Assembly: GCF_016026235.1 (NCBI RefSeq)
Contig: NZ_CP065613.1
Strand: one strand, 5' to 3'
DNA length: 64,000 nt
Source: Escherichia coli
Lineage (GTDB): Bacteria; Pseudomonadota; Gammaproteobacteria; Enterobacterales; Enterobacteriaceae
The notes under the pieces were generated by a model, which saw only the letters and a list, made by a program, of their open reading frames with translations, did no database searches and was not told where the DNA came from. The position numbers and the translations under genes are program-made. Below are positions 28,836-50,815 of this stretch, one piece after another; within the stretch, counting starts at the first letter, position 1, and every line of letters begins with the position of its first letter.

Positions 28836-29300
28836 ATGGAAAAGAAATTACCCCGCATTAAAGCGCTGCTAACCCCCAGCGAAGTGGCGAAACGCAGCGG
28901 TGTGGCGGTATCGGCGCTGCATTTCTATGAAAGCAAAGGGTTGATTACCAGTGTCCGTAATAGCGGCAATCAGCGCCGATATAAACGTGATGTGTTGCGA
29001 TATGTCGCAATTATCAAAATTGCTCAGCGTATTGGCATTCCGCTGGCGACCATTGGTGAAGCGTTTGGCGTGTTGCCCGAAGGGCATACGTTAAGTGCGA
29101 AAGAGTGGAAACAGCTTTCGTCCCAATGGCGAGAAGAGTTGGATCGGCGCATTCATACCTTAGTGGCGCTGCGTGACGAATTGGATGGATGTATTGGTTG
29201 TGGCTGCCTTTCGCGCAGTGATTGCCCGTTGCGTAACCCGGGCGACCGCTTAGGAGAAGAAGGTACCGGCGCACGCTTGCTGGAAGATGAACAAAACTAA
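28836..29300 (+). CDS. soxR: Redox-sensing [2Fe-2S] regulator SoxR (154 aa)
   Basis: Protein [37 protein letters not shown]... (MerR family) with C-terminal [12 protein letters not shown] cluster motif. Confidence 0.97.
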
Positions 29301-29435
29301 AGCGCCACAAGGGCGCTTTAGTTTGTTTTCCGGTCTTTGTCTTTCTCTCTATCCCGCTGGTACACAGGAGGGTTTCCCCCGACGTCAACACACCTCATTC
29401 GAGCACGTGGTGGAGGTTCCGGTTGGTGTTGATGC
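29295..29435 (-). ncRNA. ryjA: Candidate small RNA (RyjA-like) convergent with soxR
   Basis: I recall a ~140-nt sRNA between soxR and ghxP on the opposite strand in K-12; the hairpin at the soxR stop (aaagcgccacaagggcgcttt) is followed by a U-rich tract on both strands. Ends not determined. Confidence 0.3.
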
Positions 29436-48429: not shown

Positions 48430-48455
48430 GATAAAAAAACAGCCTCCGAAAGGAG
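48430..48455. terminator. Stem-loop terminator between yjcO and fdhF
   Basis: Hairpin acagcctcc-gaaa-ggaggctgt preceded by a run of A. Confidence 0.7.
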
Positions 48456-48473
48456 GCTGTAGAAAGGACTGTA

Positions 48474-50621
48474 TTACGCCAGTGCCGCTTCGCGCAGGCG
48501 AGTTTTCAACTTGTTGTACTCGTCAATCACGTACTGCTCGGCGGCACGCTGATCGGCGATCGGCTCGACGCGCACGGCGCAGTATTTGTATTCCGGCGTT
48601 TTCGTAATCGGGCTTAAGTTTTCGGTAACCAGCTCGTTACAGGCACCAATCCACCACTGGTAGGTCATGTAAATCGCCCCTTTGTTCGGACGATCGCTGA
48701 CCTGCGCACGGGTGATAATTTTGCCTTTACGCGAGTGCACCCAAACCAATGCCTCATCTTCAATACCCAGACGTTTGGCGTCTTCGGTATTGATTTGTGC
48801 GTAGCCAGGTTCATCAGCCAGCGCCGCCAGTGCCGCACAGTTACCGGTCATCGAACGGCAAGAGTAGTGACCAACTTCACGCACCGTTGACAGTACCATC
48901 GGGTACTCGTCGGTGAGTTTGTCGATTGGCGCTACCCAGTCGCAGGTGAAGAACTGCGCCAGACCGTTCGGGGTATCAAACTTCTCTTTAAACAGATAAG
49001 AAGTCCCCTGATCGGCATCTGAAGTATCGCGGCAAGGCCACTGAATGAAGCCCAGTTCGCCCATTTTCTCGTAAGTCGCACCGTAGAAATCCGGGCACAG
49101 ATGACGCAACTCATCCCAGATCTCCTGGGTGTTGTTGTAGTGCATCGGATAACCCATACGGGTGGCGATTTCACTGATGATTTGCCAGTCCGTTTTCAGA
49201 TCCCATTTCGGTTCAACTGCTTTGAAGAAACGCTGGAAGCCACGGTCAGCCGCAGTAAACACGCCTTCATGCTCGCCCCACGACGTTGACGGTAAAATAA
49301 CATCCGCCGCCGACGCGGTTTTGGTCATAAAGATGTCCTGAACGATGACCAGTTCCAGATCTTCAAAGGCTTTACGTACTGCCGACAGCTCCGCGTCAGT
49401 TTGCAGCGGATCTTCGCCCATAATGTACGCGGCACGCACTTCGCCATGCGCTGCGCGGTGCGGCAGCTCGCTGATGCGATAGCCGGTATGCGCTGGCAGG
49501 CTTTCCACGCCCCAGGCTTTGGCGAATTTCTCGCGGTTAGCCGGATCTTTCACATACTGGTATCCCGGATACGTATCCGGCAGCGCGCCCATATCGCAGG
49601 CACCCTGCACGTTGTTCTGACCACGAACCGGGTTTACACCCGCATGCGGCTTACCGAGGTTACCAGTCAGCATCGCGAGGCTGGTCAGAGAACGCACGGT
49701 TTCCACGCCCTGGTAGAACTGGGTTACACCCATGCCCCACAGGATGGCGGCGCTTTTCGCCTGGGCATACATCCGTGCCGCCTGACGAATCTCACTGGCG
49801 CTGACGCCGGTGATATCTTCAACCGACTCCGGCGTGTAGCCTTCAACGATTTTACGATACTCTTCAAAGCCTTCTGTACGGGAAGCGACGAACGCTTTGT
49901 CGTACAGATTTTCTTCAATAATGACATGGCCCATCGCATTCAACAGCGCGATGTTCGAGCCGTTTTTCAGTGCAATGTGCATGTCAGCAATGCGCGCGGT
50001 TTCAATTTTGCGCGGATCGCAGACGATAATTTTCGCCCCGTTACGTTTAGCGTTAATTACGTGATTCGCCACGATTGGGTGGGAATCCGCCGGGTTGTAC
50101 CCGAAAACGAACACTAAATCGGTATTATCAATTTCGTTAATAGCATTGCTCATTGCGCCATTACCGACCGATTGGTGCAGACCTGCAACCGATGGGCCGT
50201 GTCAGACACGAGCGCAGCAGTCAACGTTATTGGTACCAATAACGGCGCGCGCAAATTTTTGCATTACATAGTTGGTTTCGTTACCCGTACCACGCGAGGA
50301 GCCGGTCGTCTGGATGGCATCCGGACCGTACTTCTCTTTGATGGCGCTCAGGCGCTCGGCAACGTAATTCAGTGCCTCATCCCAGGAAACAGGTTCGAGT
50401 TTGCCGCCACGCTGGCGACGGATCATGGGGGTTTTCAGGCGCGGGGTCAGGATCTGGGTATCGTTAATGAAATCCCAGCCATAATAACCCTTCAGACACA
50501 GGGTACCCTGGTTGGTTTTCCCCTGCGCTGCCTCCGCCCGGACGATTTTGCCGTTATCGACGACCAGGTTGATTTTGCAACCTGATGCGCAATAGGGGCA
50601 AACCGTGACGACTTTTTTCAT
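48474..50621 (-). CDS. fdhF: Formate dehydrogenase H, selenocysteine-containing (715 aa; in-frame UGA at 50202-50204)
   Basis: Track ORFs 50202..50621 (139 aa, ...NNVDCCARV) and 48474..50153 (559 aa) are in the same frame, separated by one TGA and 16 sense codons; 139+1+16+559 = 715; molybdopterin-oxidoreductase Cys cluster MKKVVTVCPYCASGCKI at the N-terminus. Confidence 0.95.
50155..50201 (-). promoter_or_regulatory. SECIS element of fdhF
   Basis: mRNA immediately 3' of the UGA reads CACGGCCCAUCGGUUGCAGGUCUGCACCAAUCGGUCGGUAAUGGC, which forms the fdhF SelB-binding hairpin. Confidence 0.9.
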
Positions 50622-50670: not shown

Positions 50671-50688
50671 TATGCATCTTTTATGCCA
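50671..50688 (-). promoter_or_regulatory. Sigma-54 promoter of fdhF
   Basis: Minus strand reads tggcataaaagatgcata (TGGCAT-N5-ATGCA; GG and GC 10 nt apart), about 50 bp upstream of the fdhF start codon. Confidence 0.7.
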
Positions 50689-50788
50689 CATTTTATTTGG
50701 GGTCATTCCCTGATATTACGGGCACTATTTATTCAAAACTCTGACGAAAAACAGGCTGTCGTCAGTTTTGACGTGACGAAACGAAATA

Positions 50789-50815
50789 CCGCGTGACAGC
50801 CATCACGCGGCAGAC
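50789..50815 (-). terminator. Stem-loop after mdtP
   Basis: Palindrome ccgcgtgac-agccat-cacgcgg immediately downstream of the mdtP stop, followed by a U-rich tract on the minus strand. Confidence 0.55.

Follow-up and report, generated by a model that had tools for sequence, protein, structure and literature searches.

The in-frame UGA codon and SECIS hairpin of fdhF in an Escherichia coli chromosome

The UGA codon inside fdhF and the hairpin that follows it are almost certainly the selenocysteine recoding signal of E. coli fdhF. Both lie on the minus strand of a 64,000-nucleotide stretch of E. coli DNA, referred to here as the window, and the features of the locus are collected in Table 1. 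The analysis establishes the reading frame, the UGA, the identity of the product to a crystallised selenoprotein, the sequence and structure of the SECIS element, its conservation, and its covariation. The UGA and SECIS of fdhF form a signal that is real, intact and already fully described, and the element has no novel feature. Indeed, we take this site to be the textbook and founding example of SECIS-directed selenocysteine insertion in bacteria.

Table 1 Features of the fdhF locus, in positions of the window
Feature	Coordinates	Strand	Basis and remarks
fdhF CDS (formate dehydrogenase H, 715 aa plus stop)	48474..50621	-	Translation, PDB identity, TIGR01591, RefSeq annotation of homologous loci
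UGA codon 140	50202..50204	-	Read as selenocysteine, Sec140; direct sequence reading and translation
Full SECIS, 55 nt	50155..50209	-	Rfam SECIS_2; includes 5 nt before the UGA, paired to the 3' end
Classical fdhF SECIS, 40 nt	50165..50204	-	UGA as nt 1-3, extending to nt 40; definition of PMC8659212; fold
Minimal upper stem-loop, 17 nt, GGUUGCAGGUCUGCACC	50174..50190	-	nt 15-31, the SelB-binding part according to PMC8659212; sequence and fold
Intrinsic-terminator-like hairpin and T-run	48439..48460	-	14 nt past the fdhF stop codon
Terminator-like hairpin after mdtP	50812..50787	-	Upstream of fdhF
Putative sigma-54 type -24/-12 promoter-like element, TGGCATAAAAGATGCA	50673..50688	-	The fdhF ATG lies 52 nt downstream
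Candidate FhlA upstream activating sequence, repeated CGTCA/TGACG	50741..50785	-	Sequence reading

Reading frame and protein product

Translation of 50621..48474 on the minus strand gives a single frame of 716 codons, in which the sole internal stop is a TGA at codon 140. The minus strand around this codon reads GAC TGC TGC GCT CGT GTC TGA CAC GGC CCA TCG GTT GCA GGT CTG CAC CAA TCG GTC GGT AAT GGC GCA ATG. In a mechanical list of open reading frames the gene appears as two pieces, an upstream ORF (50621..50202) of 139 residues plus the stop and a downstream ORF (50153..48474) of 559 residues, which starts at the first ATG past the TGA, at codon 157. Translated in the one frame, the 16 codons separating the two ORFs contain no further stop. 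When both ORFs were searched against Pfam, the domain PF00384 was found to run across the interruption, with profile positions 1-80 in the upstream ORF and 98-352 in the downstream one. The two ORFs are therefore one gene. Two antisense ORFs that overlap fdhF, at 50172..50585 and 49401..50117 on the plus strand, have no Pfam match and were treated as shadow ORFs.

The identity of the product is clear. With X placed at codon 140, the translated protein matches the crystallised formate dehydrogenase H of E. coli (PDB 1AA6) with 100% identity over 715 residues, and the entries of this enzyme that it matches are 1AA6, 1FDI, 1FDO, 2IV2 and 7Z0T. The deposited sequence carries a non-standard residue, X140, which aligns with the TGA codon of the gene. 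The protein scores 1089 bits against the NCBIfam model TIGR01591, for which the equivalog cutoff is 666.25, and its Pfam domains follow the order PF04879 (Fe4S4), PF00384 (molybdopterin) and PF01568 (molybdopterin dinucleotide-binding). The UGA codon falls within the molybdenum-ligand motif ARV-U-HGP, in the context CCARV*HGPSVAG, where the asterisk is codon 140. Among the matches listed in the cross-species scan described below, the same motif is shared by 8 distinct sequences of the fdhF type and 71 of the fdnG/fdoG type.

A preliminary description of this DNA had named the gene fdhF, and the TIGR01591 score, the complete identity to the PDB sequence and the fdhF CDS of RefSeq all bear this out. 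It had further described two ORFs in one frame, split by a lone TGA, which is what the 716-codon translation shows. Its warning that gene callers split fdhF when selenocysteine is left unannotated is borne out by the mechanical ORF list and by the cutting of PF00384 at the TGA. The alignment to Sec140 that it had proposed as a check places the TGA codon at residue 140 of the formate dehydrogenase H in the PDB.

Of 5426 complete E. coli genomes, 5419 contain a 2.3-kb region with fdhF, in which RefSeq annotates a single fdhF CDS. A 71-nt segment spanning the UGA and the SECIS is matched without a single difference by 5405 of 5420 E. coli records, compared with only 4308 for identity of 99% or more over the entire gene. 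Among the variants shown, that of strain 14EC007 diverges most, and it is the one that was inspected; it has two synonymous changes in the SECIS segment, one of which converts an outer-stem U-G pair to C-G, the other lying at an unpaired position. This near-invariance speaks for selection that still acts on the binding of SelB. The fdhF of E. coli K-12 (PDB 1AA6/1FDO/2IV2; RF01988) agrees with that of the window in its 715-residue protein, in the SECIS over 55 positions and in the fold, and the SECIS element itself shows no difference. Compared with other strains, the window has a few synonymous or flanking differences outside the SECIS, the best match being 99.8% over 2301 nt.

It might be argued that the TGA acts as an ordinary nonsense codon, that fdhF is here a pseudogene or two genes in an IS-rich lineage, and that the 139-residue fragment is its sole product. 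A mechanical ORF caller does split the gene, and the closest relative has many pseudogenes with internal stops. However, the TGA is shared, with its flanks, by the 5405 identical records noted above, and it aligns with residue 140 of a crystallised full-length selenoprotein. The rest of the frame is conserved as protein at 100%, a single Pfam domain spans the stop, the SECIS is intact, and RefSeq annotates one intact CDS. A nonsense codon is thus extremely unlikely.

Structure and covariation of the SECIS element

The sequence 3' of the TGA is UGACACGGCCCAUCGGUUGCAGGUCUGCACCAAUCGGUCGGUAAUGGCGC. A search with cmscan identified the Rfam family SECIS_2 (RF01988) at 50209..50155, with a score of 87.1 bits against a gathering threshold of 70 and an E-value of 7e-19. 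The alignment covers model positions 1-55 of 55, with every conserved consensus position matched, and this is the only SECIS match in the Rfam scan of the window. The element is not a member of SECIS_3, for which it scores 35.8 bits, below the threshold of 63; that model fits the fdnG/fdoG type.

The minimum free energy (MFE) fold of the 55-nt segment is the consensus structure of SECIS_2, in which the 5 nt preceding the UGA, from 50209, pair with 50159..50155. Segments of 40, 50 and 55 nt all fold, at their MFE, into a hairpin directly 3' of the UGA. The preliminary description had placed the recoding site, UGA and hairpin together, at 50155-50204. The presence of the element there is upheld by the SECIS_2 score and by the MFE fold, but its modelled start is at 50209, 5 nt 5' of the UGA. 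The fold of a 40-nt segment, the length that had been suggested for this check, does show the hairpin (z -1.29).

According to a review (PMC8659212), the part of the element bound by SelB is a 17-nt upper stem-loop situated 11 nt from the UGA, with a bulged U17 and with G23 and U24 in the loop. The geometry in the window matches this exactly, with the stem-loop at nt 15-31, the 11-nt spacing, the bulged U17 at 50188, and G23 and U24 of the apical loop at 50182 and 50181. RNAfold prefers a register in which U18 is bulged and U17 pairs with A29. The published U17 bulge was preferred to it, since the A18/U29 combination of Haemophilus, described below, is compensatory in the published register only.

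Relative to dinucleotide shuffles, the hairpin shows no excess stability, with z-scores of -0.08 (50 nt), -1.29 (40 nt), -1.23 (55 nt) and -0.67 (17 nt). These values are uninformative because the segment is short and GC-rich, and they were not used as evidence. Since stability is at the level of chance, it is homology, the covariance model and covariation that support the hairpin.

Covariation was examined across species using the pattern GCNCGNGTNTGACAYGGNCC, which was scanned against 100,044 species genomes and matched at least 120 loci. After deduplication, the matches listed comprise 8 different sequences of the fdhF type and 71 of the fdnG/fdoG type, and 6 of the matches listed are chance matches in contexts unrelated to formate dehydrogenase. 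The UGA is kept in all 8 of the distinct fdhF-type orthologues among the matches listed, a conservation that arises by construction, because the pattern itself required TGA and fixes nt -9 to +11, including the UGA.

When the 8 fdhF-type sequences among the matches listed are taken together with the window, 96.1% of the cells at paired positions hold standard pairs, a figure that drops to 20-47% once the 3' partners are shifted by 1-3 columns. The fdhF element of Haemophilus haemolyticus (locus L034, 3065-3119) has two compensatory changes in the upper stem, G15-C31 to U-A and U18-A29 to A-U. Its peptide reads LLK instead of LHQ, and U17, G23 and U24 are all retained. With 9 distinct sequences the fdhF-type sample is small, and a single species accounts for the two compensatory changes. 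Among the fdnG/fdoG hairpins (71 distinct sequences among the matches listed) there are 48 compensatory cells at 4 pairs, a score reached by 0 of 500 shuffles.

These observations bear on the suggestion that the hairpin has arisen because a conserved peptide (HGPSVAGLHQSVGNG) must be encoded in GC-rich DNA, with no selection on the RNA. The weak MFE z-scores, between -0.08 and -1.29, and the invariance of most pairs among Enterobacteriaceae would both fit such a view. However, pairing collapses when the partners are slid by 1-3 nt, and in Haemophilus the peptide changes from LHQ to LLK with both sides of two pairs altered and the pairing kept. The paralogous fdnG/fdoG hairpins exchange G-C, A-U and C-G at 4 pairs in a way that the shuffles do not reproduce. 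In addition, mutation of U17 or of G23 is described as abolishing read-through, in the literature as it is cited in PMC8659212. A coding by-product is consequently a barely credible account of the hairpin.

The SECIS elements of fdnG and fdoG, which encode the alpha subunits of formate dehydrogenases N and O, offer a further comparison. Like that of fdhF, they have the ARV-U-HGP motif, a hairpin right after the UGA, and the bulged U17 and apical G23-U24 at an equal distance from the UGA. They differ in that the apical stem has one additional base pair, with a 3-nt loop in the MFE structure where fdhF has 4 nt, and in the sequence and register of the lower stem. The encoded peptide is TVASLAP in place of SVAGLHQ, and the two types fit different covariance models, SECIS_3 and SECIS_2 respectively. 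The SECIS elements of eukaryotes and archaea also recode UGA as selenocysteine; these are 3'-UTR kink-turn elements with a separate binding protein, SBP2. As is well established, the fdhF element by contrast lies inside the gene's coding region, immediately behind the UGA, and SelB itself recognises it.

Gene context and the sel genes

The gene order in the window is mdtNOP-fdhF-yjcO-gltP-nrf, which is also the genomic context of fdhF in E. coli K-12. Terminator-like hairpins lie on either side of fdhF (Table 1). We take fdhF to be dependent on sigma-54 and FhlA, and TGGCATAAAAGATGCA has been assigned to that regulation as a putative promoter. This assignment is based on its position and on prior knowledge, because a scan of the window for the sigma-54 consensus gave 34 matches against 42 expected by chance, and thus no enrichment. 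The CGTCA/TGACG repeats further upstream are read as a candidate FhlA site from general knowledge of how fdhF is regulated.

Several other elements were noted in the window. Rfam naRNA4 (RF02564) has four matches with a spacing of about 113 nt at 47277-47686 on the plus strand, between gltP and yjcO and a short way downstream of the latter, and a fifth at 36672-36742 on the same strand; the group looks like a REP/BIME repeat cluster. The Hfq-binding sRNA sraL (RF01408) is found near soxR/soxS, at 29293-29433 on the minus strand, with a score of 153 bits.

The complete genome closest to the window is that of E. coli FDAARGOS_943, with 99.9% identity over 25 kb. It is IS-rich, with many pseudogenes that have internal stops. 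An ISSso6 insertion (IS110 family) in a SopA-family pseudogene, at about 2178-3305 on the minus strand, is common to both, and the window lacks two other insertions of FDAARGOS_943, an IS5 in a quinone oxidoreductase gene and an IS1 near aphA/tyrB (corresponding to about 15397-15400 and 20393-20402). With one IS shared and two missing, the source of the window is thus a close yet distinct, less IS-laden relative of this Shigella/EIEC-like strain.

It is worth adding that the two strains differ within fdhF in a short repeat. In the window the heptamer GCCGATC occurs as two tandem copies at 48551-48564 on the minus strand, around codons 686-691. In FDAARGOS_943 (locus L006, 9520-9630) there are five copies, amounting to a 21-bp in-frame insertion that adds 7 residues near the C-terminus, and the gene is otherwise identical to that of the window. 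Of 5426 E. coli genomes, just 1 has the five-copy allele.

Selenocysteine insertion depends on the sel genes. None of these lies within the window, as judged from a tRNA scan, which returned 0 tRNAs, and from the gene content given by colinearity with the annotated relative, which includes no sel gene. In the genome of FDAARGOS_943, tRNA-Sec (selC) is present and selA and selB are intact. Across complete E. coli genomes, selAB are found in 5425 of 5426, selC in 5424 of 5426 and selD in 5425 of 5426. With the relative and these species-wide counts as proxies, the absence of sel genes from the source genome is very unlikely.

These counts also limit the idea that the UGA is decoded mainly without Sec-tRNA(Sec), for example by a near-cognate Trp or Cys tRNA, the source strain having lost part of the sel pathway. 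The evidence on sel comes from relatives, and in FDAARGOS_943 it covers selA, selB and selC; because that strain is IS-rich and has many pseudogenes, the source strain may conceivably have lost an accessory gene such as selD. Against this, selA, selB and selC are intact in FDAARGOS_943 in spite of its pseudogenes, selD is missing from a single E. coli genome of the 5426, and the perfectly conserved SECIS argues for ongoing selection on SelB binding. We give the near-cognate explanation next to no credence, and the reading of the UGA as selenocysteine is retained.

Recoding and its significance

SelB binding, the mechanism of selenocysteine insertion and the efficiency of recoding are taken here from the literature on the identical sequence. 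For that sequence, SelB binding and insertion of selenocysteine at the UGA have been reported (PMC4513850, PMC8659212), and the recoding efficiency in vivo was 30-40% for a fragment comprising fdhF codons 130-179 (PMC4513850).

On this basis, a ribosome translating the fdhF mRNA would meet the UGA at codon 140 and, at once behind it, the SECIS hairpin. The C-terminal domain of the elongation factor SelB would bind the upper 17-nt stem-loop by way of the bulged U17 and the loop nucleotides G23 and U24, while SelB also carries GTP and Sec-tRNA(Sec). This tRNA would be the product of selC, charged with serine and converted to selenocysteine by SelA using selenophosphate supplied by SelD. Tethered about 11 nt from the UGA, the SelB complex is expected to compete with release factor 2 (RF2) for the A site and to place Sec-tRNA(Sec) there. 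The read-through product would be the 715-residue formate dehydrogenase H, in which Sec140 is predicted to ligate the Mo-bisPGD cofactor, and ribosomes that lose the competition would terminate to give the 139-residue fragment.

The practical consequence concerns annotation. Correctly annotated, fdhF is a single CDS joined from 50621..50205 and 50201..48474, and 50204..50202 carries a selenocysteine translation exception. A pipeline that leaves the two ORFs unjoined will report a false pseudogene or two fragments.

A wider reading would be that fdhF, its SECIS and selABC are kept by selection in a decaying, IS-laden lineage of the Shigella/EIEC type. We consider this highly improbable; if it were true, it would point to an unappreciated need for the selenoenzyme of formate-hydrogen lyase in the niche of that lineage. 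The fdhF site holds no biological novelty, and its value is practical, in the annotation of the CDS. It can also serve well as a positive control when genomes are scanned, being a true recoding signal that was recovered from raw sequence.
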